From an archaeon (GTDB taxonomy: Archaea; Nanobdellota; Nanobdellia; Pacearchaeales; UBA284), in NCBI GenBank assembly GCA_020343435.1, contig CP070794.1:519341-581711 (forward strand): a stretch of 62,371 nt of DNA. The letters run 5' to 3'. Below the pieces are notes generated by a model. That model ran no database searches. It was not told the DNA's origin and saw nothing but the letters and a program-made list of their open reading frames with translations. This document shows, one piece after another, positions 27,991-61,981 of the stretch (the first letter of the stretch is position 1; every line of letters starts with the position of its first letter). The position numbers and the translations under genes were made by a program.

Positions 27991-28506
27991 ATGGTACACA
28001 TAAATATAGAAATCAAAGCAAAGATAACTAATCCCGAGCAAATAAGAACTATTCTAAAAGTAAAAAATGCAGATTTTAAAGGAGAAGACCACCAAATTGA
28101 TACTTATTTTAAAGTTAGTAAAGGAAAATTAAAACTAAGAGAAGGAAAAATCGAAAATGATTTAATTTATTATCAAAGAGAAGAAGAAACTGGTCCAAAA
28201 CAGTCAAATGTTATATTCTTTAGTTTTGATCCTAAATCTTCTCTAAAAGATGTTTTAACTAAATCTTTAGGGGTTCTAGGGGTAGTAACTAAAAAAAGAG
28301 AGATTTATTTCATTGATAATATTAAATTCCATATAGATAAGATTAAAGAGTTAGGAACTTTTCTTGAAATCGAAGCAAGAGATGAGAAAGGTAATATTGG
28401 TAAGGAGAAATTAATTGAACAATGTAATTTTTTCAAGAATTTATTTAAGATTTCAGAAAAAGATTTAATCTCAGTTTCTTATCTAGATTTACTAAAACTT
28501 AACTGA
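27991..28506 (+). CDS. CYTH-domain protein (CyaB-like class IV adenylate cyclase / triphosphatase)
   Basis: N-terminal ExExK (NIEIKAK). Size and beta-barrel pattern match CYTH. Confidence 0.8.
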   Translation: MVHINIEIKAKITNPEQIRTILKVKNADFKGEDHQIDTYFKVSKGKLKLREGKIENDLIYYQREEETGPKQSNVIFFSFDPKSSLKDVLTKSLGVLGVVTKKREIYFIDNIKFHIDKIKELGTFLEIEARDEKGNIGKEKLIEQCNFFKNLFKISEKDLISVSYLDLLKLN

Positions 28507-29436
28507 TTTCTTAAGCATATTCTTAGTTAACACTATCATCTCTTTCATGTATTTCTTCCTATCTTGTGGCATTTTCTTCATAGAAACATAAGCCCATAAA
28601 AAGAAATCAATATTACAAAACAAGATAATAGGAATAATTGCTTTCTTCTCTTTTTTACTTAATTTACTAACTTTTTCATACTCTCTTAAAAATATCTTAG
28701 CTTTCTTAACATCTACTCTGCCATTAGCACAAGCTAAATCTCTTATTGAAACAGCAACATCCACAACTCTTGGGGCATAGTTTGTTTCATCAAAATCAAT
28801 AATCCCATCTAACTTTCCATTATAAAACATAACATTACTTGGATCAAAATCACTATGAATAAACAATCTATTTTCTGGAACATCAATCTTTATTTTCTTA
28901 AAAAGATCTTTAAAATAATCTCTGTATTGTAAAGCTAATCTATCTTCTTCAGTTTTCTCTTTAATATTTTTCATTTTTCTAAAACCTCTTAGAACTCTTT
29001 GAATAGAGATGTCTTTAGTTGGTTTCTCTTTAATATTTTTAATGTATTTATGATAAATAGCTAAAGCTTTTGCCATCTGTTTCATCTGTATTAGATTAGC
29101 TTTTTTTCTGTTATTTCCTCTAAGCATTCTATAAACCCAGACTTTTTTATTACCAAACTTTAAAATGTTCTTAGAATCCCTTGTTTTAAGAGGATAAGGA
29201 ACAGAATAAGGAAAACCACTCTCATTTAGAAAATATAATACTCTAAATTGCAGTTTCAAATGCTCTACTTTATATCGGGTAGTGTCTCCAACAATTCTAA
29301 TTATGAATTTTCCTTTATTAGTTTTAAGAATATAATTATAATTAGCTAAACCTCCTTCAATAAGTTTGTAATTCAACATCTTTCCGAGATCAAATTGTTT
29401 AGCAACTTCTAAGATCTCTTTTTTTGATAGTTTCAT
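28492..29436 (-). CDS. aminoglycoside-phosphotransferase-fold kinase (homoserine kinase II / choline kinase-like)
   Basis: Catalytic loop HSDFDPSNVMF and metal-binding IDFDE. Confidence 0.75.
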   Translation of the reverse strand: MKLSKKEILEVAKQFDLGKMLNYKLIEGGLANYNYILKTNKGKFIIRIVGDTTRYKVEHLKLQFRVLYFLNESGFPYSVPYPLKTRDSKNILKFGNKKVWVYRMLRGNNRKKANLIQMKQMAKALAIYHKYIKNIKEKPTKDISIQRVLRGFRKMKNIKEKTEEDRLALQYRDYFKDLFKKIKIDVPENRLFIHSDFDPSNVMFYNGKLDGIIDFDETNYAPRVVDVAVSIRDLACANGRVDVKKAKIFLREYEKVSKLSKKEKKAIIPIILFCNIDFFLWAYVSMKKMPQDRKKYMKEMIVLTKNMLKKSVKF

Positions 29437-29488
29437 AGAAGAATTTATTCACTAACACTTAAAAGGTTAACTAAAGAAAGAGCATAAA

Positions 29489-30040
29489 TTAATTAGGACT
29501 CTGTGTTCTTCCTTCTCCCCAAAATGGAACAGGCATTACTAAGACCACCTTCATATCAATTCCAAATTCAGTATCCACCCTGTCCTGTCTGTATCCTTCT
29601 CTTCTAAGTTGTTCTACATATTGCTGAACATCATTAAAATCTGGGTAGGTTCTTATTCCTTCTAAGAAATCTTCATAAGCAATCCCTCCGTGCCCTCTAA
29701 CCAAATTTCCAACATAACTATCATTTAATGTAAATGCTGGAACAGGCACACGGTTTCCTTTAATCACCATTGTTGGGATCTCCCCATTCAAAGCACGAAG
29801 AAGACTATATAGATTTCTTTTAAGATCATCAACTGTATCTCCCTTTTCTTTTCTTTTTAAAAGAGCATAAACTTTATCCCTTTTTAATATACCCTCTATA
29901 TGGCCTGGCTCAACAACATCATCCATAGTACATTTTCCTCCTTCTTTGGTCATAGTCATGCCAGTATCATAAATCCCAACATTTCTATCTCTAAATGCTC
30001 TTACTATTCTACTTGTCATCATTGGGGAATATTTTTTCAT
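29489..30040 (-). CDS. hypothetical protein (183 aa), atypical composition, leader-motif gene A
   Basis: Clean ORF, G/R/V/D-rich, preceded by the conserved leader. No family recognised. Confidence 0.7.
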   Translation of the reverse strand: MKKYSPMMTSRIVRAFRDRNVGIYDTGMTMTKEGGKCTMDDVVEPGHIEGILKRDKVYALLKRKEKGDTVDDLKRNLYSLLRALNGEIPTMVIKGNRVPVPAFTLNDSYVGNLVRGHGGIAYEDFLEGIRTYPDFNDVQQYVEQLRREGYRQDRVDTEFGIDMKVVLVMPVPFWGEGRTQSPN

Positions 30041-30076
30041 TTTAATTCAGAATAAGGTCTGAGGCCTATCACCTCT
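30041..30076 (-). promoter_or_regulatory. conserved 5' leader copy A (anti-16S box + hairpin)
   Basis: Gene-sense: AGAGGTGATAGGCCTCAGACCTTATTCTGAATTAAA followed by ATG. A TATA-like TTCTATAAAG lies about 19 nt upstream. Confidence 0.6.
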
Positions 30077-30112
30077 ATCTCTACAATTTTAAGAACTTTA
30101 TAGAACTTTCTT

Positions 30113-30676
30113 TCAAACAATTTTTTCAATTTTTTTCAAAGTTTCTTTCAGATTCCCGACTTTTCTAGTTTCAGGAATTCCGAAAATAGGAATTTTAATT
30201 TTATTTTTCCCAAGTTTTTTAATTAAAATTTCAAAAAATACTCCTTTTTCTTTAGATAAAACCGAAATAGATCCTTTTCTTACTGGAGTAACATCCACAC
30301 CACAACTAGGACTTCCATTAACTCCCAAAATAAAAGTAATTTTGTAATTATTTTTTTGATAATCTTTTATTTTTTTAATCAAATCATCACTAATTTTAGA
30401 GCAAGTTTTTCTATAACTTAAAGTATCATACCTCTGTTTTGTATCATCTCCTAATGGCCTTCCAATACCTAATTCTGCTTGTTCAGGACAAGGAATTTGA
30501 ATAATCCCAATTTTATGCTTTTTTAATAAATTTATTAAAGGGTCAATCATTGCAGGAAAATTCGCAACACCCTGAACTTTAGAATTCTGATTTATAAGAC
30601 AATGAGCAAGAAATGCAATTTTTCTACTTCTTTTATCTTTCATCTCTCTCTTGAATAACACATTTATTTTCAACAC
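30113..30676 (-). CDS. DUF523-like (TudS-type) Cys-cluster protein
   Basis: AHCLINQNSKV, IPCPE and GSPSCG resemble the three-Cys DUF523 pattern. The start is probably the internal Met at 30643. Confidence 0.45.
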   Translation of the reverse strand: MLKINVLFKREMKDKRSRKIAFLAHCLINQNSKVQGVANFPAMIDPLINLLKKHKIGIIQIPCPEQAELGIGRPLGDDTKQRYDTLSYRKTCSKISDDLIKKIKDYQKNNYKITFILGVNGSPSCGVDVTPVRKGSISVLSKEKGVFFEILIKKLGKNKIKIPIFGIPETRKVGNLKETLKKIEKIV

Positions 30677-30947
30677 AACTACAATTGAAATCTACACGTA
30701 AATAAGTATAATATACTGGCCCCAAAAAAGTCCATTTAGCACTACTACAACTTTCATCTTTGTTTATACACCCACAAGCTGATTTTACACAATCAGACTT
30801 TATAGAACATTGAATATTGCAATTATCTCTATTCCTATTCCATCCAGCACATTGTGTAGAACTTATAGCTATCCGAATACCTACATAAGCAAACCAGAAT
30901 ACAATAATAGCAATAACAATAATAAGTATAATCCTGCCCGTTTTCAT
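30633..30947 (-). CDS. membrane-anchored Cys-rich small protein
   Basis: N-terminal TM helix followed by more than 10 Cys in about 70 aa. Confidence 0.55.
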   Translation of the reverse strand: MKTGRIILIIVIAIIVFWFAYVGIRIAISSTQCAGWNRNRDNCNIQCSIKSDCVKSACGCINKDESCSSAKWTFLGPVYYTYLRVDFNCSCVENKCVIQERDER

Positions 30948-30981
30948 CTACCTCTAAGAATTCTTAGAGATTTAAACTTAA

Positions 30982-31350
30982 CTAAGATATAATATAGTTA
31001 AGAATAGTTCCAATACCATACCCCACAACTCCCATAAAAATGTATGCACCGAGTTTTATAGTTTCTGAGATCCCAGCACTAGTCCAATAAGCCCATGCTT
31101 TATACCCATGTTCTCTTCTCTCTCTATGCGCTTCCCATAAGAATGCTCCAGGTACCAATAACAAACCATCACTTTGTATTGTTCTACTAACTAAATTATC
31201 ATTAGGACCATAAAAAACAGTATCTGTTAGTTTATCAAAAAGTTTATCAGATCTAGAACGAGTATCTTCTAAAGGAGCTCTTCTTGGGATTACATTTCCA
31301 GGGATTACAAAAGCTGTTCTATCTGTTGCAGTTGATCCACTTTTATCCAT
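30982..31350 (-). CDS. hypothetical protein with C-terminal TM helix, atypical composition
   Basis: Clean ORF with a CACAATAAT-TTTTATAAG box upstream. No family recognised. Confidence 0.6.
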   Translation of the reverse strand: MDKSGSTATDRTAFVIPGNVIPRRAPLEDTRSRSDKLFDKLTDTVFYGPNDNLVSRTIQSDGLLLVPGAFLWEAHRERREHGYKAWAYWTSAGISETIKLGAYIFMGVVGYGIGTILNYIIS

Positions 31351-31402
31351 CTTTCAACAATTATTCTTTAACTTATAAAAATTATTGTGATTAAGAAAAG
31401 GT

Positions 31403-31816
31403 TTAACCAGAAGATTGTTGTTCTCGTATTTGTTCCACAATTTCTCTCCATCGCCTTTCATAACGTCCAACTGCGCACATCCCCCCAACATAACCTCCGA
31501 ATCCAAGAATACCTAAACCAAGAATAGTAAATGCTCCTTGTGTAGTTGTCCTATGGCCTTTCTCCTGCATTTCATCTCTTTCCACTTCAGTAATGTATCC
31601 ACCATTATACTGTCTAGATAATCCCGCATCCTGAATAATGGGTACAACTGAAAAAACTACAGCTGCAAGTCCAGCTAAACCCGCTGATACAAGACTCACT
31701 AAAGCAGCATTTTTAATTCTTCTTATTACTTTCTCGTAATATTGTTTCCTCTCTTTTAAATAATTTATATCAGCAGAACCTTCTTCAATTACTCTCATAG
31801 AACTTTCTTCACTCAT
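31403..31816 (-). CDS. hypothetical membrane protein (2 TM), atypical composition
   Basis: Clean ORF with a CGCAATAAT-GCTTTTAAATTT box upstream. Confidence 0.6.
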   Translation of the reverse strand: MSEESSMRVIEEGSADINYLKERKQYYEKVIRRIKNAALVSLVSAGLAGLAAVVFSVVPIIQDAGLSRQYNGGYITEVERDEMQEKGHRTTTQGAFTILGLGILGFGGYVGGMCAVGRYERRWREIVEQIREQQSSG

Positions 31817-31875
31817 GCTTTAACAATACTTCCCAAATTTAAAAGCATTATTGCGGTTAATTGATTTATTTTTAT

Positions 31876-32481
31876 CTAAGAATGATCAGGATCAATCTTT
31901 GTAGAAATTTCAACATCTCTTATTGGGTGCTTTGCTAAAAAATCGTTGAGTAATCTAAGACGTGACTTACCAACAACTTGAGCTTTTCCTGGAGTAAAAG
32001 CATATTGGCCACTAACTAACCTTTCATTTAAAGAATCTATTTCTTTTTGAGGATTTTTTACTAATTTTGCAATATCAATATATCCAGGAAATCCATTGTA
32101 TACTCTATATGTATCTGAAGCTCCAACTACTCTATCATTATGGTGAATAGTAAACCAAAATCTAAGCATTTCAACATAATTTTTTAAATAAGCTTGTTTA
32201 ACTTCAAAAGGAAGGGGCTTTTGCTCATTCATTCTCTTAACAATTTCTTCTGCCCTATCTTTTGTACTCATATGATCTAAAGTGATTATTTGTGCAGACT
32301 TTTCAACAAATTGTGGTAAAGGAATATATTCTCCTGGAGAAATTAGAATTTCTAAAGTACTAAAACCCCTTGCAGGACTCTTAATTAAAGTACATTTAGA
32401 AAGATCTAAACCATAAATTCTTTGATAGACTACATCCATCACACTTTCCACATCATACTGTTCTGTTGTGGGTGTTGCCAT
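31876..32481 (-). CDS. hypothetical protein (201 aa), atypical composition, leader-motif gene B
   Basis: Clean ORF preceded by the conserved leader. No family recognised. Confidence 0.7.
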   Translation of the reverse strand: MATPTTEQYDVESVMDVVYQRIYGLDLSKCTLIKSPARGFSTLEILISPGEYIPLPQFVEKSAQIITLDHMSTKDRAEEIVKRMNEQKPLPFEVKQAYLKNYVEMLRFWFTIHHNDRVVGASDTYRVYNGFPGYIDIAKLVKNPQKEIDSLNERLVSGQYAFTPGKAQVVGKSRLRLLNDFLAKHPIRDVEISTKIDPDHS

Positions 32482-32517
32482 TTTAATTCAGAATAAGGTC
32501 TGAGGACCAACACCCCC
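32482..32517 (-). promoter_or_regulatory. conserved 5' leader copy B
   Basis: Gene-sense: GGGGGTGTTGGTCCTCAGACCTTATTCTGAATTAAA followed by ATG. It shares 27 identical nt, including the ATG, with copy A. Confidence 0.6.
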
Positions 32518-32605
32518 AATCTTATGATTTTAAGGGACTATATAAATTTTATTGAGATTTATTTAGCACAATAATCTTTAAAAATTAATAGAGGATCAAG
32601 GTAAC

Positions 32606-33196
32606 ATGAGAACTGGCGGGGGGCATCAACAATTAGCTGAGAGAATACTTAATAATGGATATAGTCCTGAGCCTTCAGCTCATTTAAACACTTTAACAGG
32701 TCAATTAAATAGTTGTCCAGAAGGATCTAAGATAAGACCTAAACTTGAAGCTGCTATTTCCTTTCTTGAACAGACATATAAGTTACAAAGACCTAAAATA
32801 GTAAGTAAAAAAGAGAGAGATAAAATTAGAAGAGATATGCATAGAATCATAAGAAGAGATAAAGGATCTTTTGATTCTAGTTATAGAACAAAAAGATTTG
32901 AAGAACCAGAGAGTACAGGAGTAAGACCAGCAATTATTAGACTGAGACTTGACAGATATCGTTCAGAACATTCTAGAGTTACTAGAGCATTTTGGGAACA
33001 ATTTTCAAAAGAAGAATTGCTAGATTATCTAAACAGTATTCCTGGAACAAATGTCACTAGATTTAGACTTGAAAATAGAGCATTAGCAGGGGTTCTTAAA
33101 AATAAATACAGTATAGATCTAACAAGTCATTTCGCTAGTAGAAGAGCTAGAGAAAGAGAAGTTGGTTTTAAAAGGAATCTTTATGATGGATGGTGA
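32606..33196 (+). CDS. hypothetical basic (Arg-rich) protein (196 aa)
   Basis: Clean ORF with CACAATAATCTTTAAAAATT upstream. No family recognised. Confidence 0.65.
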   Translation: MRTGGGHQQLAERILNNGYSPEPSAHLNTLTGQLNSCPEGSKIRPKLEAAISFLEQTYKLQRPKIVSKKERDKIRRDMHRIIRRDKGSFDSSYRTKRFEEPESTGVRPAIIRLRLDRYRSEHSRVTRAFWEQFSKEELLDYLNSIPGTNVTRFRLENRALAGVLKNKYSIDLTSHFASRRAREREVGFKRNLYDGW

Positions 33197-33198
33197 TT

Positions 33199-33369
33199 TT
33201 ATTTTCTAGATTCTTTAAATGCAAAATACATAAGAATTATAAGCAATGCATTAAGAACCACAAGCAAAAATATTCCTGATGCTTTTGATAGAGTTGGAAG
33301 TTTGAATAATACATAAACTGTATAAATAATCACAAGAATAGCTGCTCCTAAAAAATTACCTCTTACCAT
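33199..33369 (-). CDS. small hydrophobic protein (56 aa, 2 TM)
   Basis: Hand-translated: MVRGNFLGAAILVIIYTVYVLFKLPTLSKASGIFLLVVLNALLIILMYFAFKESRK. Below the ORF-track cutoff. Third gene of a tandem trio. Confidence 0.4.
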   Translation of the reverse strand: MVRGNFLGAAILVIIYTVYVLFKLPTLSKASGIFLLVVLNALLIILMYFAFKESRK

Positions 33370-33376
33370 CTTTTTT

Positions 33377-33526
33377 TCAAGTATAGTTAGTATTTAGATC
33401 TTTCTTTAAAAGATGAATTAATCTAAAATTTTTTCTTTTTAATAAGACACCTAATAAAAATCGAATTAGATTAGCAATTCCTATAACTATAAGAACTATG
33501 CAAATCCAAAATAAAATTTGATTCAT
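33377..33526 (-). CDS. small hydrophobic protein (49 aa, 1 TM)
   Basis: MNQILFWICIVLIVIGIANLIRFLLGVLLKRKNF... A paralog is at 34652..34741. Confidence 0.4.
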   Translation of the reverse strand: MNQILFWICIVLIVIGIANLIRFLLGVLLKRKNFRLIHLLKKDLNTNYT

Positions 33527-33529
33527 TTT

Positions 33530-33706
33530 TTATTTAACCTTTAGCAACCTAAACTTTGAAGATCCTATAAAAACAATCCCTAAAATCACAAGAAATATAG
33601 GAAAAGTACTTTCTCCCATAAAATCTCCAATAAAAAGAACTACTGCAGCTATCATAAATGCTAGTCCAAAAAAGAACATAAATTTATTGCCTTTATTTTG
33701 ATCCAT
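33530..33706 (-). CDS. small hydrophobic protein (58 aa, 2 TM)
   Basis: MDQNKGNKFMFFFGLAFMIAAVVLFIGDFMGESTFPIFLVILGIVFIGSSKFRLLKVK. A TATA-like box lies about 20 nt upstream. Confidence 0.4.
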   Translation of the reverse strand: MDQNKGNKFMFFFGLAFMIAAVVLFIGDFMGESTFPIFLVILGIVFIGSSKFRLLKVK

Positions 33707-33797
33707 GTATTCCTAAGAATTATTACAAATTTAAAGTTAACTACAAAACAACTTTTATCACAACAATTATTATAAATTCAAATGTAGTTAAAATAAT

Positions 33798-34187
33798 ATG
33801 GGAGAAGGGGATTATGTAAGAAATCCAAACAGTATCTGTACTATAGCTAGAGAAGAAAGTGATAGATTATTAAGAGGACTAGAACCAAAATACGCGTTTT
33901 TAATTCCTTTCAAAGACCCAGCTACTGGCGAAGAAAGAGTAGATATAACTGAACAACCTCCTTACTTAGCAAAAGGAAGGTTTGTTTATAGAATAGTCCA
34001 ACCAGAAGAACTTGGGAGGTTAGGCAAAGCGAGAGTAGTGAATCCCCGCACTCATGGAGAAAGAGAAACAGACTTTCCAAGAGCAGCTTTAATTCAAGCA
34101 ATTCATTTCCATATTCTTGGGCACAGAACTGGTCTTATGCGAGAAACCCAAGGTACAAAACGTCCAGCACCAGTATACCAACCATAA
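33798..34187 (+). CDS. hypothetical protein (129 aa), atypical composition
   Basis: Clean ORF with CACAACAATTATTATAAAT upstream. Confidence 0.65.
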   Translation: MGEGDYVRNPNSICTIAREESDRLLRGLEPKYAFLIPFKDPATGEERVDITEQPPYLAKGRFVYRIVQPEELGRLGKARVVNPRTHGERETDFPRAALIQAIHFHILGHRTGLMRETQGTKRPAPVYQP

Positions 34188-34245
34188 CTTTTCTTATTGT
34201 TATCACTTAATAGTAACATTTATAAACTCTATTTCTCACAGAATT

Positions 34246-34629
34246 ATGATTAAAATGAAAAGAATATTATATGGTCTAGGAATTACAGGAGCTTTGATAG
34301 CTACTGCTTACTCTGCAGTCCCAAGAGTTCAATCATATGTTCAAGCACGTTTACCAGGACTTTATCAAATGGTAGATAATGTTACTTCTTTGTTTCAAGA
34401 CACTAAGAAAGGATTATGTGAGTTAGGTGGAGTTGATGATCTATCTGAACTAGAGAGAAGCACCGGCGATATAATTAGAGATGCTATTGCTGGAGCTGGG
34501 TTACTTGATGAAAAGATTGGAATTCCAAGCATCAGAGAAGTTACGTCTCCTGAGGCAGCAGAACAACAAAGACAGAATATCAAGGCAAGTTTGGAAGCTG
34601 CAGTTGATGCTGGTTTATTTAAAGAATAG
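34246..34629 (+). CDS. hypothetical protein with N-terminal signal/anchor helix
   Basis: Start moved to ATG 34246 (MIKMKRILYGLGITGALIATAYSA). The track start 34117 overlaps the previous gene. TTTATAAA lies about 27 nt upstream. Confidence 0.6.
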   Translation: MIKMKRILYGLGITGALIATAYSAVPRVQSYVQARLPGLYQMVDNVTSLFQDTKKGLCELGGVDDLSELERSTGDIIRDAIAGAGLLDEKIGIPSIREVTSPEAAEQQRQNIKASLEAAVDAGLFKE

Positions 34630-34651
34630 AACTAAACTCTCTATTTTTTTA

Positions 34652-34741
34652 TTACCTTAAAAATCTTAATAAAAATAAAATTAAATTAGTAATCCCTATA
34701 GCTAGAAGAACTATACAAATCCAAAACAAAATTTTATTCAT
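34652..34741 (-). CDS. small hydrophobic peptide (29 aa)
   Basis: MNKILFWICIVLLAIGITNLILFLLRFLR. ATGA overlap with the stop of 34738..35679. The first 20 residues and the DNA resemble 33377..33526. Confidence 0.35.
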   Translation of the reverse strand: MNKILFWICIVLLAIGITNLILFLLRFLR

Positions 34742-35679
34742 TTTTTGTAATCCAACTTATCAGCAAAACCTTCAGGAACTTGGCTCAAATCAACTTCAGA
34801 ACCAAATACATCTTTAGTAACATTTAACAGTTTATCTAATAAAACCTGTGGGTCAATTCCAACAAGTTTTGCAGTAACTAAATCAACATCAATAGAATTC
34901 TTGCCTCCAACAATCAAATTAAGATTTTCTTTTAATCTTCCATTTAAAGGGGCGGGACCATCTATTGCTCTAAATATCCCCTCATTAATAAAAACAGAAT
35001 TAAAAAGAGCACGGTAAATTTTATTCATATCTAAAACTGAAAAAGGAAGAATTTTCATTTCATGATCATGATATCTTGGGGATCTTTTTGGGTCAGGAAT
35101 CAAACCAAAGAGATTTTTAGTAGATAGAGTCATCCCCACATCAGCAGTTTTAATTTTTGCAAAATCAATAAAAAAAGGATTTTTTAAATTCCAGAGTTTT
35201 TTAGGAACAGTTGCATATAATTCTTTATGTTTTACAGGAGAAAATTTCTTTTCCACCAACTCTTGAATGATTTTAGGATCAACTACTTCATTTTTCCAAC
35301 ATTCTTCAGTAATATTAACATATTCTACATTATATTTTTTAAAAACATCTTTTATACCAGTAGATTCAAGAAACCATTTATCCTGTTCTCTTAGAAAATC
35401 TTTTTTATCATCCATATTCTTTTCATCAACTAACTCTTCTCCTTTTTCTAGTAGTGGTTTGTTTCTCCAAGCAGTATGGCTTTCAATAACTATTTTTCTT
35501 CCATTTAAACATCTGAGAATCCATTCTAATGGTGTGGCTTCTGTAAAATGTCCTTTAGAAGCTTCTACCCAATTAGGTTTTATAATAAAAGTATCTCCTT
35601 GTAAGTTTAACTGATCTATAAACTTCTTAAACTCTTCAAAAGTTTTTACTTTTTCAAAAAATACATTACCAACTCTCAT
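34738..35679 (-). CDS. DUF362-like protein
   Basis: 313 aa. The N-terminal FIIKPNWV resembles the DUF362 signature. Background-like composition. Confidence 0.55.
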   Translation of the reverse strand: MRVGNVFFEKVKTFEEFKKFIDQLNLQGDTFIIKPNWVEASKGHFTEATPLEWILRCLNGRKIVIESHTAWRNKPLLEKGEELVDEKNMDDKKDFLREQDKWFLESTGIKDVFKKYNVEYVNITEECWKNEVVDPKIIQELVEKKFSPVKHKELYATVPKKLWNLKNPFFIDFAKIKTADVGMTLSTKNLFGLIPDPKRSPRYHDHEMKILPFSVLDMNKIYRALFNSVFINEGIFRAIDGPAPLNGRLKENLNLIVGGKNSIDVDLVTAKLVGIDPQVLLDKLLNVTKDVFGSEVDLSQVPEGFADKLDYKK

Positions 35680-35753
35680 CAGATCTCAAGAATTCTAAAA
35701 GATTTAAGTGTTTCGCTAATTACAATAATTATTAAAAACATTAAAGAGATTAA

Positions 35754-36194
35754 ATGAAAATGGATCTTGATGAAGTAACAGAAAGGGCAACAATAAAGTT
35801 TGGTAAGCCAATAAGTTGGACTGAAGCTGAAAGAATGTTGGGTTATGTTGCTCAAAGGACCGGTTTAGAGATGGGTTATACTGTTGAACAAAGAAAAAGA
35901 ATAAAACCAGATAAAACAGATCCAGATTCTATTCCAGAACCACAATATGATTTTGTGATAGTTGAAGCAGGAGCAATGCATAATGAAGAATTGGCTTGTG
36001 TAGGAACTTTTTTTCTTACAATCCCCCCGGAAGAAAGAGGAGATGGAACAATAGCTGATAGATTAGTATTCCCTACCCTTCCTGGGATGCCTCTTAAAGC
36101 GCATGGTGAGAAAGCAATAAAATTGTGGGACGATGTAAGAACAGCAGTTGCAGAATATTTTCAACAACCACAAGAATCTCCTGAATCACAATAA
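35754..36194 (+). CDS. hypothetical protein (146 aa), atypical composition
   Basis: Clean ORF with TACAATAATTATTAAAAA upstream. Confidence 0.65.
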   Translation: MKMDLDEVTERATIKFGKPISWTEAERMLGYVAQRTGLEMGYTVEQRKRIKPDKTDPDSIPEPQYDFVIVEAGAMHNEELACVGTFFLTIPPEERGDGTIADRLVFPTLPGMPLKAHGEKAIKLWDDVRTAVAEYFQQPQESPESQ

Positions 36195-36225
36195 TCCTTT
36201 TAAATTTGAAAATAATTGTTGAAAT

Positions 36226-36789
36226 ATGGCACCATATGCAGTATTAGATGGAGGAAAAGATAGCCAAGGAGACCCAAGTGGAAGACCAAAAGAAGAAAGA
36301 GAAGGTGGTCGTAAGATATACTTCAAAAGGAAAATCAGAGAAAGAGAAACTCAAGAACCGCCTAGAAGGGGAACAATGGTATTTTATAATGGGATAGACG
36401 AATCATTGCGGGATGTTGATATAGTTAGACCAGGGAATTGGTATGTTGTTGAATCTGATCAAAAAGGACAAGAAAGACAAAGAAGGACCCATGGGTTATC
36501 AATAAAGATAGTTGGAAAAGGCCATTTAGGATACTGGCAATATGAGTTAATAGTTAAAAAAAACGGCTTAATTGTAGAAGGGCATTATCCTACAGAACCA
36601 TGTCAAATTGAAGATCTTGCAAGGATAGTAAAGCGAAGTATAGCAGATTATGGTCCAAAAGAAGGTGTTAATATTGGAGAGGTAGTGAGTACTTATGAGT
36701 ATTTTAGACCTGGAGAAAGGGATTTGTTATTCCAACTTCTCAAAGAGGAACAAGAGCCTAATGGTAATAAAAGATTAGCACCAGTATAA
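36226..36789 (+). CDS. hypothetical protein (187 aa) with disordered basic N-terminus
   Basis: Clean ORF. CACAATAATCCTTTTAAATT upstream overlaps the previous stop codon. Confidence 0.65.
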   Translation: MAPYAVLDGGKDSQGDPSGRPKEEREGGRKIYFKRKIRERETQEPPRRGTMVFYNGIDESLRDVDIVRPGNWYVVESDQKGQERQRRTHGLSIKIVGKGHLGYWQYELIVKKNGLIVEGHYPTEPCQIEDLARIVKRSIADYGPKEGVNIGEVVSTYEYFRPGERDLLFQLLKEEQEPNGNKRLAPV

Positions 36790-36840
36790 AGATAATTATC
36801 TTTTCAGTTAATTATTTAAACAAATAAAAATGAATAATTT

Positions 36841-36881
36841 AGAGGTGATAAAAACCTCAGATAGAGTTCTGAGTGGAAAAA
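36841..36881 (+). promoter_or_regulatory. conserved 5' leader copy E
   Basis: AGAGGTGATAAAAACCTCAGATAGAGTTCTGAGTGGAAAAA followed by ATG. TATA-like ATTATTTAAAC lies about 17 nt upstream. Confidence 0.6.
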
Positions 36882-37310
36882 ATGATATTAGAACCAAATT
36901 ATAAGCATTTAGCCCATCAAATACTTGCTCGTGAGAGAAGATATACTCAAATATGTAGTCCTACACCAAAACCCATCACAGCATTTTGGCAAGAAGGTAT
37001 ATACAATGGAGCATATCAAATACTTTTTCCTACACAACCAGAAATTGCTTTAGTGACAAAAAGCAATAACCCTATAATCCCAGAAGTTCTTGAAGAATTG
37101 CGTAGACAAGATCCTGGAAGATTAGAATTAAATGTAGACCCAGAGATTAAATTTGATCTTTCTCCAAGATATATACTGAGATTATTTTTAGATGAAAAAA
37201 GATTAGGTATGGTAACAGAAGAACAAAAAGATTTTGCAGAAAGAAATCTTTCAAGATCCTCTATTGTTATTTTAAATTTTAGTCTTGGTTCAGATCCAAG
37301 GGATAATTAA
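36882..37310 (+). CDS. hypothetical protein (142 aa), leader-motif gene E
   Basis: The track ORF begins at GTG 36873, inside the leader. ATG 36882 is preferred by analogy with the other four copies. Confidence 0.65.
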   Translation: MILEPNYKHLAHQILARERRYTQICSPTPKPITAFWQEGIYNGAYQILFPTQPEIALVTKSNNPIIPEVLEELRRQDPGRLELNVDPEIKFDLSPRYILRLFLDEKRLGMVTEEQKDFAERNLSRSSIVILNFSLGSDPRDN

Positions 37311-37371
37311 TACATTTATAAATTTAATGTAACACAACAATCCTTAAAACTTAAGAAAGAATTCTAAAGTT

Positions 37372-38397
37372 ATGCCTTTTGATCCCATAGCACTTGCAAA
37401 AGAAACAGAAGCAAAAGCTGTTGACGGAAATAAAAGAAAATATAATATTTTCAGAGCTGAAAACTATTATGGCCAAATAGCAACTGCTCGTGGAACCGGT
37501 TGTAATTCAAGATGTGTTTTTTGTTGGATAAATCCTTCAAGAGATGATCCTACAAAATATGGAACTTTCCATACTCCACAACAAGTTTATGATAAACTTG
37601 TAGAGGTTTCTTCTAACGAATTTGGAAGATTAATGTTAGCTAATACAGCAAGGATCTCAGGATGTGAACCTACAATAGGAAAAGACCATTTGCTTTCTTT
37701 AATAGATTTACTTAAAACAAAATATGATTCTACTCCAACTCCAGAAGTAGGTTTTAAGCAAGAATTTGCATCTTTCTTACTTGAAACAAACGGTTTTTTA
37801 TTAGGAAACGATCCAAGTTTCATTAAAGCATTAAGAGAATTTGGAGATTATGTTTATGTAAGACTTTCTTTTAAAGCAGGAACCCCAGAAGCTTTAGAAA
37901 GAAAAACTGGTGTAGATAGAAAAGCTTTTGAATTACCTTTCTTAGCTTTAAGACAACTAGCTACTTATAAAATGAATTATAGAATTGCAGCAATGTCTTC
38001 TGATCCAGTTTTAATGCCTCAAGAAGAAAGAAGAGGTCTTTTAGAATCCATTACAAACACTTTGGGTTTTCTTCCAACAATAGATGAAGAAGATGCACAT
38101 CCTTTTGGAATAACTGTTAAAAGATTAAAAGCTGCAGGAATAATCCAAGATGCAGAAGAATTAGGAAAACAAAGCTATGAAGATCCTCATTCTTCCTTAA
38201 CTAGAGTACAAGATACAAAAGTAAGAATAAGAACTGACGAAGGAGTAATAACCACAGACCCCCCAGAAGCACTTAGAAGATTAATTCATGATTCTGAACT
38301 AAGAACTAAAGAAGTTGATAGAACCCGTTGCGCATCTTGTAGAAATCCTTGGCATGGTTATGATATTGAAGATGATCTTGATCCAAAACTAGGTTAA
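37372..38397 (+). CDS. radical SAM domain protein
   Basis: CX3CX2C cluster motif (GCNSRCVFCW), a GGE-like SGCEPTIG and a C-terminal extension of about 100 aa containing CASC. Confidence 0.75.
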   Translation: MPFDPIALAKETEAKAVDGNKRKYNIFRAENYYGQIATARGTGCNSRCVFCWINPSRDDPTKYGTFHTPQQVYDKLVEVSSNEFGRLMLANTARISGCEPTIGKDHLLSLIDLLKTKYDSTPTPEVGFKQEFASFLLETNGFLLGNDPSFIKALREFGDYVYVRLSFKAGTPEALERKTGVDRKAFELPFLALRQLATYKMNYRIAAMSSDPVLMPQEERRGLLESITNTLGFLPTIDEEDAHPFGITVKRLKAAGIIQDAEELGKQSYEDPHSSLTRVQDTKVRIRTDEGVITTDPPEALRRLIHDSELRTKEVDRTRCASCRNPWHGYDIEDDLDPKLG

Positions 38398-38552
38398 CCT
38401 TTCACCTTAGGCATTATCCAAAATGCAATAATCGCAGCAATAATAAGAATTATTAAAAATAATAATGGAGAGATTATTTTAAAACCTATAAAAATCATAT
38501 TAAGAACTAGAATTATTACAATAATCAAAGAGATTATCTGCTTAGCTCTCAT
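38394..38552 (-). CDS. small hydrophobic protein (52 aa, 2 TM)
   Basis: MRAKQIISLIIVIILVLNMIFIGFKIISPLLFLIILIIAAIIAFWIMPKVKG. Lies 30 nt downstream of gene D. Confidence 0.4.
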   Translation of the reverse strand: MRAKQIISLIIVIILVLNMIFIGFKIISPLLFLIILIIAAIIAFWIMPKVKG

Positions 38553-39158: not shown

Positions 39159-39195
39159 CTTCACTCCCCAGAATTTGCTGAGGCTAACCACCTCT
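39159..39195 (-). promoter_or_regulatory. conserved 5' leader copy D
   Basis: Gene-sense: AGAGGTGGTTAGCCTCAGCAAATTCTGGGGAGTGAAG followed by ATG. TTTTATAAATAG lies about 18 nt upstream. Confidence 0.55.
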
Positions 39196-39903: not shown

Positions 39904-39911
39904 CTAAAAAT

Positions 39912-54635: not shown

Positions 54636-55850
54636 TTATTCGTATCTTAGAGCTTCTACTGGTTTCAATCTTGAAGCTCTCACAGCTGGTAATGTTCCAG
54701 CAACACATCCAACAACAAAAGAGAACACTAATGCTCCTATTATTAACCATGCTGGGAATGAAACTTGTAATAAAGAACTTCCTAAAGCACCATATGCAAT
54801 TGCTTGAGCCATTTTTCCTAATCCAATTCCTATAGCAACTCCAATTAACCCACCAACTAATCCAAGCATTCCAGCTTCAATTAAAAATATACTTAGAATA
54901 TTAGAATTCTTTGCTCCAATAGATTTCATAATCCCAATTTCTCTAGTTCTTTCTAAAACAGAAGTATACATTGTGTTCATAATCCCAATTCCACCAACTA
55001 AAAGAGAGATTGCAGCAATACCAATCAATACAGCTTGTAAAATACCCAAAATATTCTGAAAACTCTCAAATAATTGTTCTGCAGTCTGAACAGTAAATGT
55101 TTCTTCACCTTCTTTTTCATCTCTAAACCTTCTTAACTCCCTTGCAATTCTCTCAGCAATTTCAACAGGATCTTCTCCTTGAATAACTTTAGCATAAAGT
55201 TGTGTCTCTTCTTCTCCCAAATTCATAATATCTCTCATAACTTCTTTAGAAATTAGAACAGACTCATCATCATAAGGATTTCCAGTACTTTCTAAAACTC
55301 CAACAACTCTAAACTCAACCCCCTCAATCTCTATTTTCTTACCAAGATCTACTGGCTTTTCCCATAATCCCCCAGAAACATGACCATAACCAACAACAGC
55401 CTTGTATTTATCATCTGGTTTTAGAAATCTTCCTTCTTCAATCTTAAAAGCCTGAACTTCTTCAAATCTCATATCATCTCTCGGGTCCACACCAGATATA
55501 AAAGCAATTTCTAATTCATCTCTATACTTTATAACTCCTGTTTTAAACACAATTCCTACAACTCCAAAAACTCCTTTCGTCTTTTCAACAACTTCCATAT
55601 CTCTTGTTGTTAATAATAATGATTGACCTGAAGCTGATCCTGGTGGTCCCAGGGATTTACTCTGGATGATTACCTTATCTTTTCCCAGATTCTCAAATTG
55701 TTCAGCTACAGAAGATTCTAATCCCTGTCCTATGGAAATTAAAGCAACAACAGCAGCTATTCCAATAAAAATTCCTAGAATTGTTAGAAAACTTCTTGTT
55801 CTTCTGTTTCTTAGATTTTTAAAAGACAGATTAAAATAATCTATTATCAT
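54636..55850 (-). CDS. ABC transporter permease, FtsX/MacB type
   Basis: N-terminal TM helix, a large extracytoplasmic domain and three C-terminal TM helices with the FtsX pattern (GIMKSIGA). Confidence 0.88.
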   Translation of the reverse strand: MIIDYFNLSFKNLRNRRTRSFLTILGIFIGIAAVVALISIGQGLESSVAEQFENLGKDKVIIQSKSLGPPGSASGQSLLLTTRDMEVVEKTKGVFGVVGIVFKTGVIKYRDELEIAFISGVDPRDDMRFEEVQAFKIEEGRFLKPDDKYKAVVGYGHVSGGLWEKPVDLGKKIEIEGVEFRVVGVLESTGNPYDDESVLISKEVMRDIMNLGEEETQLYAKVIQGEDPVEIAERIARELRRFRDEKEGEETFTVQTAEQLFESFQNILGILQAVLIGIAAISLLVGGIGIMNTMYTSVLERTREIGIMKSIGAKNSNILSIFLIEAGMLGLVGGLIGVAIGIGLGKMAQAIAYGALGSSLLQVSFPAWLIIGALVFSFVVGCVAGTLPAVRASRLKPVEALRYE

Positions 55851-57034
55851 TATGAATTATTCATTTGTTGTAATCTTTTTCTTCTTCTCTTCTTAGCACT
55901 AAAGAAAATAATTAGGAAAACAATAATAATTATAATTACAATTAGAGCCCAAGGAAATCTAGGAACCAGACCAAGAGCTTGAGCTTCTCTAATTGTGTAG
56001 ACCTTAACATTAAATGTTTCATAATCTCTATATTCTTTATTAGAAGAATCTTTATATTCTAATTCAAATTGCAAAGATATTCTCTCTTTTTTAGGAAGAA
56101 TTTCAAATTCTACAACCTCATAGTCATCAGATTCTATGTTCCCAATATATTCATATCCTTTTTTGAAATCATAATCAGGAGAATCTAGTAATCTAATCTC
56201 AGCAAAATTAACTTCAGCCAATCCTTTATTCAGTATCTTAACTTCTATCTTAGAATTCATTCCAATAACTAAATTGTTTTCTTCAATAGTTATAGCAATA
56301 TCAGGTTCTTCAAAAACTTCTAATGAGATTGTATCACTTTTTTGATAAGAATTCCCATAAGCATCAGAGTAAGAGATTAGTAATGGTATTTTGTAAATTT
56401 GAATCTCTGCAGTTGAAAGAACATCCACAGTGAAACTTACTTGTCTTTCTTCACCATCATTTAATTCATCAATTCTCCTTTCAGTTACACTTTCAGGTGC
56501 AAAAGGTAATTCTTCTATTGCTAATTTTAGAATAATTTCTTTTATTTCTGATTCAGCAGTATTTTTTACTTTTATTTTAATATCAGCTTGATCTCCTGGT
56601 GCTACTTTTTCAGGATTTGTTATAACATCAGTAACTTGCAGATAAACTTGTCTTGGCGCAATAGTTATCTCAAAATCTTCTTTAAAAGAATCATCTCCAA
56701 GCTTGTACTCTAGACTTACTTCTTCAATTCCTTCCCTTGCTGAACCATCTACATAAATTTTATATGCAATAGTTTTAGTTTCTCCTGGTTCAAGTGAAGA
56801 AATGAATCTATCTTTTCCAGATGCTAAGGTAAAATCATTTCCAACATCTAATTCAAATGAAATATTCTCTAATAAAGCAAATTGATGATTAGTTACTTCA
56901 AATTCTAAATCAACTAAATCTCCGGGATGGACTGGATAAGGATCATAAGTTAAAGAAACATCTAATCCATCTGCTGCCACAGTTGGGACTAGAAAAACTG
57001 CTAACAACATCATTAATAAGATTGTTTTATTCAT
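55850..57034 (-). CDS. secreted repeat (CARDB/COG1361-like) protein with C-terminal sorting-signal-like tail
   Basis: Start set at the Met of signal peptide MNKTILLMMLLAVFLVPTVAA. Repeated beta-sandwich-like modules. Tail: VPRFPW, then a TM helix, then KKRRRKR. Confidence 0.7.
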   Translation of the reverse strand: MNKTILLMMLLAVFLVPTVAADGLDVSLTYDPYPVHPGDLVDLEFEVTNHQFALLENISFELDVGNDFTLASGKDRFISSLEPGETKTIAYKIYVDGSAREGIEEVSLEYKLGDDSFKEDFEITIAPRQVYLQVTDVITNPEKVAPGDQADIKIKVKNTAESEIKEIILKLAIEELPFAPESVTERRIDELNDGEERQVSFTVDVLSTAEIQIYKIPLLISYSDAYGNSYQKSDTISLEVFEEPDIAITIEENNLVIGMNSKIEVKILNKGLAEVNFAEIRLLDSPDYDFKKGYEYIGNIESDDYEVVEFEILPKKERISLQFELEYKDSSNKEYRDYETFNVKVYTIREAQALGLVPRFPWALIVIIIIIVFLIIFFSAKKRRRKRLQQMNNS

Positions 57035-57266
57035 CTTTCCTACCAGCACGCCACCTATAATAAACAGGAACCAAACTAGCTGGAAGCCATTTTTCAGGTT
57101 TCCTAATATTAGATCCTTCAACAAATCTTGTCAGACCCTCTCTTGCTCTATGAGAGATATATCTAGCTGTTTCAGTAGCTCCCCTAATCTTCTCTATCAA
57201 AGGTGTTCTTTCCACCCACTCTCCCAAAGCTCTCATCTTATCTCTTAAAGTATATTTTCCTTTCAT
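57027..57266 (-). CDS. hypothetical small Arg-rich protein (79 aa)
   Basis: ATGA overlap with the ATPase stop and an 8-nt overlap with the next start, suggesting translational coupling in an operon. Confidence 0.45.
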   Translation of the reverse strand: MKGKYTLRDKMRALGEWVERTPLIEKIRGATETARYISHRAREGLTRFVEGSNIRKPEKWLPASLVPVYYRWRAGRKDE

Positions 57267-57964
57267 TTTACAACTCCGTCTTTAATATGAACTATCTTTT
57301 TAGCTTTTTTGGCGATAGATTGATCATGTGTAATTATAATAATTGTTTTTCCTTTTTTGTTCAAATCCTGTAATAGTTTTAAAATATCTTTTCCTGTTTT
57401 AGAATCTAAATTTCCAGTAGGTTCATCAGCCAATATAATCTTAGGATCATTTGCTAAAGCTCTTGCAATAGCAACTCTTTGTTGTTCTCCTCCACTTAAT
57501 TCTCCAGGTTTATGATGCATTCTATGTCCCAATCCAACTTGTTTTAATACCAGTTCAGCTCTATCAGATCTTTCTCCAGCAGAATATCCTTGAAATAACA
57601 TTGGTAACATAACATTTTCTTTTGCAGATAATGTTTGAATTAAGTTAAATTGTTGGAATACAAATCCTATTGTCTTCCCTCTTGTTTGAGCTAATTCAGA
57701 TTCAGTCATATGAGAGATATCTAAACCTTCTAATAGAATTCTTCCACATTCAGGAACATCTAACGCCCCTATTAAATTCATTAATGTACTTTTTCCAGAT
57801 CCTGATGGACCAACAACAGCTAAAAAATCACCTTCTTTAACTGTAAGAATAGCATTTTTTACAGCTTGAACTGCTGTATGTCCCTTTCCATAAGTTTTAC
57901 AAACTTTATCTAGTTGAATTGCTTGTTTCATTTTTAAGTTTTTTTCATCCAGATTTTTTTCCAA
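57263..57964 (-). CDS. ABC transporter ATP-binding protein (MacB/LolD-like)
   Basis: Walker [10 protein letters not shown], signature LSGGEQQR and Walker [12 protein letters not shown]. Confidence 0.92.
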
Positions 57965-58259
57965 TTTTTATACTATATACATACATTTTTCCATTTATCC
58001 TAACTCCTAAATCCTTTAAGAAACAACGAATTGCTTCCTGACCCTGAGAAAAGACCTCTGGAGGGATGGTTTCCTCTAAGATTCCCTCTAATTCTTTTCC
58101 GAAATCTCCACTTGTCTCAAATTCTCTTCTTTCAGTTACTCTTCCAAATATCCCTTCTTCAGCAGCTTCTTTTTCAATAGATCCTGCTTCTAAATAGTAG
58201 CCAGCAGTGAAACCATAAGCCACTGCATCGTTTTTTATTGATTTTAATATCATCGTCAT
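57945..58259 (-). CDS. hypothetical acidic protein (104 aa), leader-motif gene C
   Basis: First gene of the ABC operon, preceded by the conserved leader. No family recognised. Confidence 0.6.
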   Translation of the reverse strand: MTMILKSIKNDAVAYGFTAGYYLEAGSIEKEAAEEGIFGRVTERREFETSGDFGKELEGILEETIPPEVFSQGQEAIRCFLKDLGVRINGKMYVYSIKIGKKSG

Positions 58260-61414: not shown

Positions 61415-61981
61415 TTACAAAACATTTTTCTTCAGCTGTAAAAGATAAATAGCACTCCCAAAACAAAGTGCAGCCATTATTACAAATAATGGATGAAATC
61501 CAAATCTAGAAGCAATAAAACCACCAAGAGCAGCTCCACCAGCAGCTGTAAAGTAGTTCATACTTTCCCATAGTCCCCACTCTCTACCTGCTTTTTTTAC
61601 AGTAATATGTCTGCTATAAAGAGCATCAAAAGCAGGAGAATAAATAGCTTCTCCAATTCCTACAACAATCTGAACAGCAAAAAGAAACCATACAGAATTT
61701 ACAAAAATATACAAAACAAAGCCAGCACCCATTAAAACATAACCCCAAATAATAATCTTTTCATCTCTTCTCATCTTATCAGCGTATTTTCCAGATATTA
61801 GTGTAGTAACTCCAGCAGCTAAAGCAAATAATCCACCAGCAATTCCAGCTTCCAGAATATTTCCACCAACTTGTTCTGCAAATATAGCAAAAATAGGTCC
61901 TAACATAGCTCCTGCAATTAAAATTAAACCATTTGTAATAAGTAGAATTCTTAGAGCTTTGTTGAAAAACCACCTCTTCAT
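61415..61981 (-). CDS. half-size MFS-type membrane protein (6 TM)
   Basis: Six TM helices with an MFS motif-A-like GKYADKMRRDEK loop. At 188 aa it is half of a normal MFS transporter. Confidence 0.6.
   Translation of the reverse strand: MKRWFFNKALRILLITNGLILIAGAMLGPIFAIFAEQVGGNILEAGIAGGLFALAAGVTTLISGKYADKMRRDEKIIIWGYVLMGAGFVLYIFVNSVWFLFAVQIVVGIGEAIYSPAFDALYSRHITVKKAGREWGLWESMNYFTAAGGAALGGFIASRFGFHPLFVIMAALCFGSAIYLLQLKKNVL

Follow-up and report, generated by a model that had tools for sequence, protein, structure and literature searches.

A five-copy structured mRNA leader in a pacearchaeal genome segment: a clade-specific, apparently undescribed element that most likely controls translation

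Five genes in a stretch of 62,371 nucleotides from the genome of a member of the Pacearchaeales (contig CP070794.1, positions 519,341 to 581,711; this whole stretch is referred to as the window) are preceded by similar short repeats, which raises the question of what these repeats are and why they stand in front of different genes. A first-pass annotation had read each repeat as a 5′ leader composed of a box complementary to the 3′ end of 16S rRNA, a conserved hairpin and, about 30 nt downstream, the ATG, and had called the five downstream proteins unrelated to each other. Comparison of these proteins confirmed that they are mutually unrelated; all are soluble and none of the five has a Pfam match. 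Judged from our sequence analysis, the five repeats are copies of a clade-specific structured mRNA leader of ~36-41 nt, which is apparently undescribed and most likely concerned with translation control.

The sequences, coordinates and strands of all five copies proved to be exactly those annotated at first pass. Their features are given in the following lines with scores in bits; the box is the Shine–Dalgarno (SD)-like sequence at the 5′ end of each copy, and P0, P1 and P2 are the helices discussed below.

30041..30076, (−) strand: leader copy A, box through to the last base ahead of the ATG, 42.4 bits
30097..30104, (−) strand: TATA-like box TCTATAAA, 20 nt upstream of leader A, from the promoter profile
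30068..30076, (−) strand: 5′ box of copy A, AGAGGTGAT, SD-like, predicted 5′ end of the transcript
30065..30067, (−) strand: P1 5′ strand of copy A, AGG, pairing with CCT 30055-30057, from family covariation
30058..30064, (−) strand: CCTCAGA of copy A, in which CCUC is the putative anti-SD mimic (P0 partner of GAGG) and UCAGA the P2 5′ strand
30055..30057, (−) strand: P1 3′ strand of copy A, CCT, from family covariation
30047..30051, (−) strand: P2 3′ strand of copy A, TCTGA, 5 bp
29489-30040, (−) strand: gene behind copy A, ATG 30040-30038, a 183-aa orphan
32482..32517, (−) strand: leader copy B with box GGGGGTGTT, 29.1 bits
32539..32546, (−) strand: TATA box TTTATATA, 21 nt upstream of leader B
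32506-32508 with 32497-32499, (−) strand: P1 of copy B, GGT with ACC
32500-32505 and 32488-32492, (−) strand: P2 strands of copy B, CCTCAG and TCTGA
31876-32481, (−) strand: gene behind copy B, ATG 32481, 201 aa
58260..58295, (−) strand: leader copy C, box 58287-58295, ATG 58259, 46 bits
58318..58325, (−) strand: TATA-like box TATTTAAA, 22 nt upstream of leader C
58284-58286 with 58273-58275, (−) strand: P1 of copy C, CGG with CCG
58276-58282 with 58264-58270, (−) strand: P2 of copy C, CTCAGAA with TTCTGAG
39159..39195, (−) strand: leader copy D, class II, box AGAGGTGGT 39187-39195, 35.2 bits, without P1
39217..39224, (−) strand: TATA box TTTATAAA, 21 nt upstream of leader D
39178-39183 with 39166-39171, (−) strand: P2 of copy D, CCTCAG with CTGGGG
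38583-39158, (−) strand: gene behind copy D, ATG 39158, 191 aa
36841..36881, (+) strand: leader copy E, box 36841-36849, 35.5 bits, without a convincing P1
36813..36820, (+) strand: TATA-like box TATTTAAA, 20 nt upstream of leader E
36856-36861 with 36868-36873, (+) strand: P2 of copy E, CTCAGA with TCTGAG
36882-37310, (+) strand: gene behind copy E, ATG 36882, 142 aa, followed by a radical-SAM gene at 37372-38397

We scanned both strands of the window with the regular expression [AG]G[AG]GGTG-N2-10-CTCAG and found only five sites, which are the leaders, against a chance expectation of 0.09 (300 dinucleotide shuffles, maximum 1). With CTGR required downstream in addition, 5 sites were observed and 0.007 expected from dinucleotide shuffles. 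The hexamer GAGGTG is scarcer in the window than expected (6 versus 10.8), and four of the six occurrences lie inside leaders. Covariance models, the check that the first-pass annotation had proposed, found further copies in related metagenome-assembled genomes (MAGs) and, in the window, two such models run with filters off recovered exactly the five copies; with model R2 these score 29-46 bits and the next match 9.7 bits (E about 2). A sixth candidate at 61977..61948 was rejected, being the start of a coding sequence (atgAAGAGGTGG) without CCUCAG. All five copies stand before a long open reading frame (ORF) with a distance of 28-33 nt from box to ATG (27-32 nt counted from the end of GAGGUGAU), and in each a TATA-like 8-mer ends 20-22 nt upstream of the box.

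The leader is not confined to this genome. We searched 185,579 species genomes (596 Gb) with the pattern AGAGGTGRT-N2-6-CCTCAG-N4-9-TTCTGR and obtained 82 loci, about 54 of which belong to Woesearchaeota, Pacearchaeota, Nanoarchaeota/Nanoarchaeia or DPANN-like MAGs labelled otherwise, lineages that make up a tiny part of the sequence scanned. The other 29 matches are scattered over bacteria, have no promoter or ATG context and come near the estimated chance number. Five matches in viral contigs were all attributed to chance (wrong GC content, no TATA or ATG context), and the exact 27-mer shared by copies A and B has no match in the reference genomes. We further fetched 80 loci (1.17 Mb) carrying the MacB-type permease of the operon behind copy C, at protein identities of at most 59%. 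At the head of this orthologous ABC operon the covariance models detected a leader on the same strand in about 17 loci, and four more loci have divergent versions, which makes roughly 20 relatives at 50-60% protein identity; in the remaining ones the gene is mostly leaderless or operon-internal, and the loci from Micrarchaeota and Nanohaloarchaea in this set have no leader copy. Overall, about 85 copies are present in MAGs of Woese-/Pacearchaeota/Nanoarchaeia. A lack of further copies or of covariation in relatives had been named at first pass as speaking against the element; both copies and covariation are present.

Among these loci are several of DPANN type (L004, L007, L017, L023, L107, L133 and others; about 30-39% G+C) in MAGs labelled Omnitrophota, 'bacterium' or 'uncultured Methanosarcinales'. 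They have archaeal promoters together with the leader or the orthologous ABC operon, which suggests that the bins are mislabelled or contaminated.

Several copies per genome are found also elsewhere, with at least five in the MAG CAZOGQ01 (L001, L005, L018, L043, L088), three leaders with the same P1 in L029, and four in tandem before small genes in L082. The four small genes of L082 (L082:1372-2856, 2892-3094; 89-118 aa where called) each have their own promoter and leader at intervals of ~350 nt and lie immediately upstream of an archaeal SRP RNA gene. In the window, copies A and B are indeed identical in 27 of 27 nt through the ATG, as had been noticed. Their modules (30041-30110 and 32482-32550, both (−) strand) are homologous from TATA to ATG, with about 65% identity followed by the 27 identical nucleotides, and the similarity stops sharply at both borders; P1 differs by a register shift, AGG/CCU versus GGU/ACC on the same 3′ sequence. 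Because the similarity is confined to the part from TATA to ATG, an expression module of ~70 nt appears to have been duplicated or converted onto unrelated genes.

Where does the transcript of these genes begin? In the archaeal copies the TATA profile lies at −29..−22 relative to the first base of the box, with an A-rich tract resembling a B recognition element at −35..−31. Archaeal promoters have a standard geometry, which fixes the transcription start from the position of the TATA box, and since the TATA distance fits this geometry the box is predicted to lie at the 5′ end of the transcript. In most promoter-proximal genes of the window the TATA 8-mer ends 19-24 nt upstream of the ATG and thus the default mRNA of this organism is apparently leaderless. 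The spacing from TATA to ATG in these leaderless genes is the same as that from TATA to box in the leaders. Both the TATA profile and this spacing support the earlier placement of the box at the transcript start; transcription would begin at the first A or G of AGAGGUGAU, so that an 8-nt SD probably forms the very 5′ end of the mRNA. The first-pass annotation missed that most genes here are leaderless. It had correctly listed proximal GGAGGT motifs at 1111, 10633 and 47717, and a strong SD 2-6 nt from the ATG is found in only six or seven genes of the window.

The box GAGGUGAU is complementary to GGAUCACCUCC, which ends 112 of the 120 16S tails that we sampled via an upstream anchor, a sample mostly of bacteria and without Woese-/Pacearchaeota in which every archaeon, including one DPANN, has GGAUCACCUCC. 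The complementarity claimed at first pass therefore holds for the near-universal tail GGAUCACCUCC and is predicted for this organism; as judged from the proximal GGAGGU motifs of the window, the anti-SD here does include ACCUCC. A further indication comes from nine promoters in related loci (L143:14663, L158, L085:19096, L113, L123, L130:1744, L138:8571, L064, L013), where (A/T/G)GAGGTG stands at the position of the transcription start and the ATG follows after 3-9 nt (AGAGGTGAAAATG and similar), with plausible genes behind. These simple leaders are minimal 5′ untranslated regions (UTRs) of about 10-16 nt which start with the SD, and in these related genomes the box appears to act as a genuine SD. 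Given that they exist, the longer leader looks like a minimal SD leader with an insert of ~25 nt between SD and spacer. A proximal SD is present in only about 8 of 58 of the longer leaders, counted from the parsed listing. Between P2 and the ATG runs a tail rich in A and poor in C, which measures 8-12 nt in about 85% of the copies, most often 9-11 nt.

The structure between box and ATG had been described as a hairpin. Its helix P2 is real, but the fold is an H-type pseudoknot and not a simple hairpin, since the 3′ strand of a further helix, P1, lies inside the P2 loop and the two helices interleave. P1 joins the 3-5 nt just after the box with the complementary 3-5 nt just after CCUCAG(A), and its sequence changes from copy to copy (AGG/CCU, GGU/ACC, CGG/CCG, AGC/GCU, UCG/CGA, CAG/CUG, AAGA/UCUU, GCUG/CAGC, CCUUG/CAAGG); the spacers involved had been left free by the search pattern. 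In the window P1 is formed by copies A (AGG/CCU), B (GGU/ACC) and C (CGG/CCG). In a permutation test on 77 non-redundant copies with 52 distinct helices, the cognate strands formed 2.74 bp on average versus 2.11 ± 0.075 bp for swapped strands (Watson–Crick pairs), a value reached in 0 of 2000 permutations; the same test on the 29 bacterial chance matches gave no effect. Double-sided changes numbered 16 versus 6.4 ± 1.9 (0 of 500 shuffles). We relied on the permutation of partners for P1 because the covariance-model alignment registers this 3-bp helix poorly, with 58.9% of the cells paired. Allowing G-U pairs lengthens the cognate P1 helices by 0.48 and allowing A-C pairs by 0.07, which favours RNA of the sense strand. 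Taken together, the comparison of copies supports the conclusion that the leader is a real and selected sense-strand RNA.

P2 has the consensus CCUCAGA:UCUGAGg and is 6-7 bp long in 69 of 78 copies. For the window, the first-pass annotation gave the stem lengths (5-7 bp) and copy D's U-G change correctly; we would add that this U-G-compatible change is one instance of a shift between two register classes, copy D belonging to class II. Copies lacking the A after CCUCAG carry GG in the tail in 9 of 15 cases, compared with 2 of 63 for the others (Fisher 1.3e-6), and in this A-less class the extra tail G pairs with the first C and so replaces the lost A-U pair. The inner half, CAGA/UCUG, is invariant in the 78 canonical copies, and because of this invariant core ordinary covariation is silent on P2. 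Divergent leaders at the orthologous ABC-ATPase gene are more telling: L123 has ACUGGAG/UUCUAGU in place of the canonical strands, with P1 intact as GGC/GCC, and L117 has CUCUAAG/CUUAGAG. In L084 and L099 there is a U-A in P2 where canonical copies have C-G or C·A. Helix length, register compensation and covarying orthologues thus all argue for P2. As read from the parsed copies, loop L1 spans the 6-7-bp helix with 1-3 nt and loop L3 the 3-4-bp helix with 2-5 nt, sizes which fit the proportions of classical H-type pseudoknots.

A second pairing, which was overlooked at first pass, may make the leader bistable. CCUC, the outer part of the P2 5′ strand, equals the anti-SD core and is complementary to GAGG(U) of the box, and many copies read CACCUC; the resulting helix, P0, could sequester the box. 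P0 and P2 are mutually exclusive, since both use CUC. In the alignment P0 is paired in 98.7% of the cells, of five single-base changes in its core four keep the pairing as G-U, and 73 of 78 copies have a purine just before CCUC, opposite U6. When only nested structures are allowed, the minimum-energy structure is P0 in 51 of 77 copies and P2 in 23. Taken alone, the two helices have nearly the same free energy (P0 −7.18 ± 1.74, P2 −7.08 ± 1.60 kcal/mol), and in 54 of 78 copies they differ by no more than 2 kcal/mol. Where CCUC is missing, in L123 and L109, a different partner is available to the box, GCCUUA or AUCGCCUUA (9 bp). Because P0 needs CCUC, it would also account for a fixed CCUC/GAG beside inner P2 pairs that can change, as in L117. 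The case for P0 is thus built on consistency, on energetics and on this explanation, and we treat the helix as a predicted one.

How might such a leader work? It is a conserved fold of the sense-strand RNA in which CCUC has two alternative partners, and it keeps a set position both to the promoter and to the start codon. The account we favour, to which we give close to an even chance, is that of a bistable and portable promoter-plus-leader module by which translation of the gene behind it would be set or gated at initiation. In the P0 state the SD would be masked in a hairpin that starts from the transcript's second base. Once the pseudoknot forms instead, the SD would be free for the 30S subunit and roughly 25 intervening bases would be folded away, shortening the path from SD to AUG, much as in the split ribosome-binding sites of the phage T4 genes 38 and 25. 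The shift between P0 and P2 might be triggered by the ribosome itself, by Mg2+ or temperature, or by a protein.

Several observations weigh against this account. Copies D and E lack P1, as do about 14% of all copies, and P0 has no statistical support from covariation because both of its strands are nearly invariant. The 16S 3′ end of the lineage was found neither in any locus examined nor by an anchored genome scan. Even a folded pseudoknot leaves both its own stack and a tail of 8-10 nt, as against 3-9 nt in the simple leaders; since an H-type pseudoknot begins at one end of its stack and finishes at the other, a compaction to the optimal distance between SD and AUG is not obvious. The leaders of L124 and L120 are 46-88 nt away from the ATG. 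Finally, the invariant inner half of P2 goes beyond what two states would demand and hints at a sequence-specific partner.

We consider it rather doubtful, though worth stating, that the leader represents a third mode of archaeal initiation beside the leaderless and the SD-proximal one. In that case the 5′-terminal SD would capture the 30S subunit, whose binding, or a clade-specific factor, would flip the SD-masked hairpin into a pseudoknot delivering the start codon, and the ~70-nt cassette would have been copied before new or acquired orphan genes in genome-reduced symbionts.

The partner hinted at by P2 leads to the first of the rival explanations, a regulon switch as had been proposed at first pass, in which a clade-specific RNA-binding protein or a small ligand would bind the invariant CCUCAGA, UUCUGAG and GAGGUG, stabilise one state and co-regulate the genes. 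Being a possible source of the trigger, it agrees with the gated module favoured here; as an explanation of its own we find it unlikely. An invariant P2 core in 78 distant copies next to a free P1 is the pattern expected of sequence recognition, yet the orthologous L123 and L117 exchange the 'recognised' sequence while keeping the pairing, and part of the invariance (CCUC/GAG) is already accounted for by the double pairing with the box. The energy balance between P0 and P2 resembles that of riboswitch expression platforms, but a riboswitch match in Rfam is absent. The copy number per genome (five in the window, at least five in CAZOGQ01), recurring targets such as the MacB-type ABC operon, M29 peptidases (2), GT2, CARDB (3) and radical-SAM proteins (3), and a clade-conserved RRM protein encoded in the window would also suit a regulon. 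Against this, the RRM gene is never found beside a leader in the other loci, and the controlled genes lack a functional theme: the 61 downstream proteins have matches to 29 Pfam families, with more than half of them having no Pfam domain at all. Among them are ABC ATPases (4), the radical-SAM, CARDB and M29 proteins just mentioned, and also homoserine dehydrogenase, DprA, a DnaB-like helicase, GT2, PALP and AlaE. This set is too heterogeneous for a metabolite riboswitch, which we therefore disfavour.

Less likely again is a constitutive split ribosome-binding site, in which the pseudoknot would be a mere device for folding the spacer, P0 incidental and switching absent. The first pass had likewise suggested a split site like that of T4 gene 38. 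The arrangement fits, with an SD 28-33 nt from the AUG, a stable structure between them and the spacing reduction in T4 as a conceivable precedent, and simple leaders with the same box exist and the tail length is constrained. For this purpose, however, any stable hairpin would suffice, whereas CCUC complementing the box is kept in nearly all copies and a sequestering partner recurs where CCUC has been lost. Nor is there an evident reason to keep a 25-nt insert when a simple leader or none would do.

Ranking below this, and to our mind improbable, is a stabiliser of the mRNA 5′ end. A 30S subunit on the 5′-terminal SD, or the P0 hairpin and/or the pseudoknot, would block a 5′-to-3′ exonuclease and raise the half-life of the mRNA rather than its initiation. 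Archaea possess 5′-to-3′ exonucleases of the RNase J / aCPSF2 type. The STAB-SD sequences taken up below offer a precedent, the SD lies at the predicted 5′ end with P0 starting from nucleotide 2, and the leaders of L124 and L120, 46-88 nt from the ATG, would suit such a role; a stabiliser would, however, hardly explain why the distance from leader to AUG is tightly constrained in about 85% of the copies and why the same box is an ordinary SD in the simple leaders.

A function at the DNA level, either as an operator palindrome just past the TATA box or as mobile-element remnants without RNA function, is most improbable: the position right after the promoter, where archaeal repressors bind, the inverted repeat CTCAGA/TCTGAG and the intragenomic spread by duplication would agree with it, but the half-sites are separated by anything from 11 to 14 nt, the G-U excess of the covarying P1 is strand-specific, the best-conserved part is the non-palindromic box, orientation and ATG distance are fixed, conservation ends at ATG and TATA, and transposase and terminal repeats are absent.

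We also rejected three more specific candidates. An operator for a dimeric transcription factor does not agree with the 11-14-nt half-site spacing, the G-U asymmetry and the asymmetric conserved box. For an L7Ae site of the K-turn or box C/D-like type (GUGAU...CUGA) there are 4-6 variable nt between P1b and UGA and hence no fixed 3-nt bulge, and CUGA is paired in P2. An upstream ORF from the GUG in the box would differ in frame and stop between copies (in frame with the gene in D, different stops in A and C), and P1 covaries as RNA.

What kind of genes stand behind the leaders in the window? The first-pass annotation was right in placing copy C at the head of an ABC operon, and orthologues of this operon carry the leader in relatives. 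The operon comprises the following genes:

54636..58259, (−) strand: operon behind copy C, encoding a 104-aa orphan, the ABC ATPase, a 79-aa ORF, the CARDB protein and the MacB/FtsX permease
57263-57964, (−) strand: ABC ATPase
55850-57124, (−) strand: CARDB protein
54636-55850, (−) strand: MacB/FtsX permease

The protein behind copy A has no relative besides itself among 5.8 billion proteins. All five proteins had been assigned to a set of atypical composition, which holds for A, D and E, clearly poor in Lys and rich in Arg (rank 5-9 of 92 by R/(R+K)), and only mildly for B and C (ranks 22 and 32). Four of the five leaders (A, B, D, E) lie within a stretch of ~11 kb, 29400-40300, of mostly small orphan genes, which is Lys-poor and Arg-rich, mostly without Pfam domains, and in which most genes are leaderless; it may be a variable or recently acquired island. 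This stretch also holds genes for a DUF362 protein, a 2-thiouracil-desulfurase-like protein and a radical-SAM enzyme. Two genes for APH-family phosphotransferases are located at 28492-29436 and 43840-44778 (both (−) strand), the first directly downstream of the gene behind leader A.

Upstream of leader D adjoins a gene for a 92-aa RNA-binding protein of the RRM_1 family (39258-39536, (−) strand; Pfam E = 4.5e-19); the gene has a proximal SD of its own. Archaea do not commonly have RRM proteins. Homologues with 51-68% identity are encoded in the related loci L093 and L099, away from the leaders, and the idea of the RRM protein as a habitual neighbour of the leader is not supported, as adjacency is confined to the window. 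The markers of the window are archaeal (both PolD subunits, Orc1/Cdc6, 5S rRNA and five tRNAs, at ~31% G+C). The 5S rRNA gene (58840-58953, (−) strand) and a tRNA-Leu(CAA) gene (59034-59117, (+) strand) lie ~550-750 nt past the promoter of leader C. As neither a 16S nor a 23S gene was detected within the window, the 5S gene is apparently unlinked from both.

We compared the leader with what is on record. The gathering scan of the window with Rfam 15 returned only tRNAs and 5S rRNA. A permissive scan of leader C gave noise at E = 5-8 (2dG-I with 12.7 bits versus a threshold of 51, sR28 with 7 versus 39), and in permissive scans of four whole loci with canonical copies nothing overlapped the leader. 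In one locus, L028, there is a weak match to hsp17 (E = 0.33) elsewhere than at the leader. Our literature search returned no such leader from DPANN archaea, the literal box sequence retrieving 16S primers only. To our knowledge very few cis-regulatory RNAs are known in archaea, and we know of none in uncultivated DPANN Woese-/Pacearchaeota.

The leader unites features that are rarely combined, namely an SD with which the mRNA is predicted to begin, an anti-SD copy within the leader itself, and a pseudoknot. It could give a handle on how the ribosomes of a mostly leaderless organism choose between recognition of the 5′ end and of the SD, and it would show that the genes behind it, among them an ABC exporter, surface proteins and many orphans, are treated by these symbionts as a class apart in expression. 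In practical terms it might serve as a compact expression module for archaeal synthetic biology, and the covariance model could improve the annotation of start sites and operons in thousands of DPANN MAGs.

Among known systems the split ribosome-binding sites of phage T4 are the closest working analogy. Sites of this type have their SD at an excessive distance from the start codon, above roughly 15 nt, which the five copies of the window also exceed. In genes 38 and 25 an intervening structure is thought to unite SD and AUG, cutting the spacing from 22 to 5 nt in gene 38 and from 27 to 11 nt in gene 25 (PMC3014915). The structure there is a hairpin whereas the leader has an H-type pseudoknot, with the SD at the predicted 5′ end and a built-in anti-SD copy able to mask it; moreover, the leader is a multi-copy family across an archaeal class and not a single phage gene, and its residual spacing stays long. 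The preQ1-I/II and SAM-II/V riboswitches are similar in being H-type pseudoknots of about 30-50 nt in the 5′ UTR with alternative pairing of the SD and with one helix conserved in sequence and one covarying. The leader differs from them by having no Rfam match, a 5′-terminal instead of an AUG-adjacent SD, no ligand-coherent genes, several copies per genome, and none of the A-rich or U-rich loops typical of these pseudoknots. With the STAB-SD of Bacillus thuringiensis cry3A it shares an SD-like sequence near the 5′ end and far from the start codon. Such a sequence binds the 16S 3′ end without initiating translation and blocks RNase J1 (PMC4113751), but the STAB-SD stands some 129 nt away from the AUG, free of any constraint on spacing and without a pseudoknot, whereas the tail of the leader is constrained and the box is apparently a true SD in the simple leaders. 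The ROSE and fourU thermometers likewise occur in several copies before different genes and sequester the SD by an internal complement, which gives way under a certain condition; in them, however, an AUG-adjacent SD is held in simple hairpins before heat-shock or virulence genes, and a pseudoknot or a 5′-terminal SD is not involved. Structured leaders that mask or reposition the SD are thus already known, and the leader described here appears to be a new family among them with an unusual combination of features.

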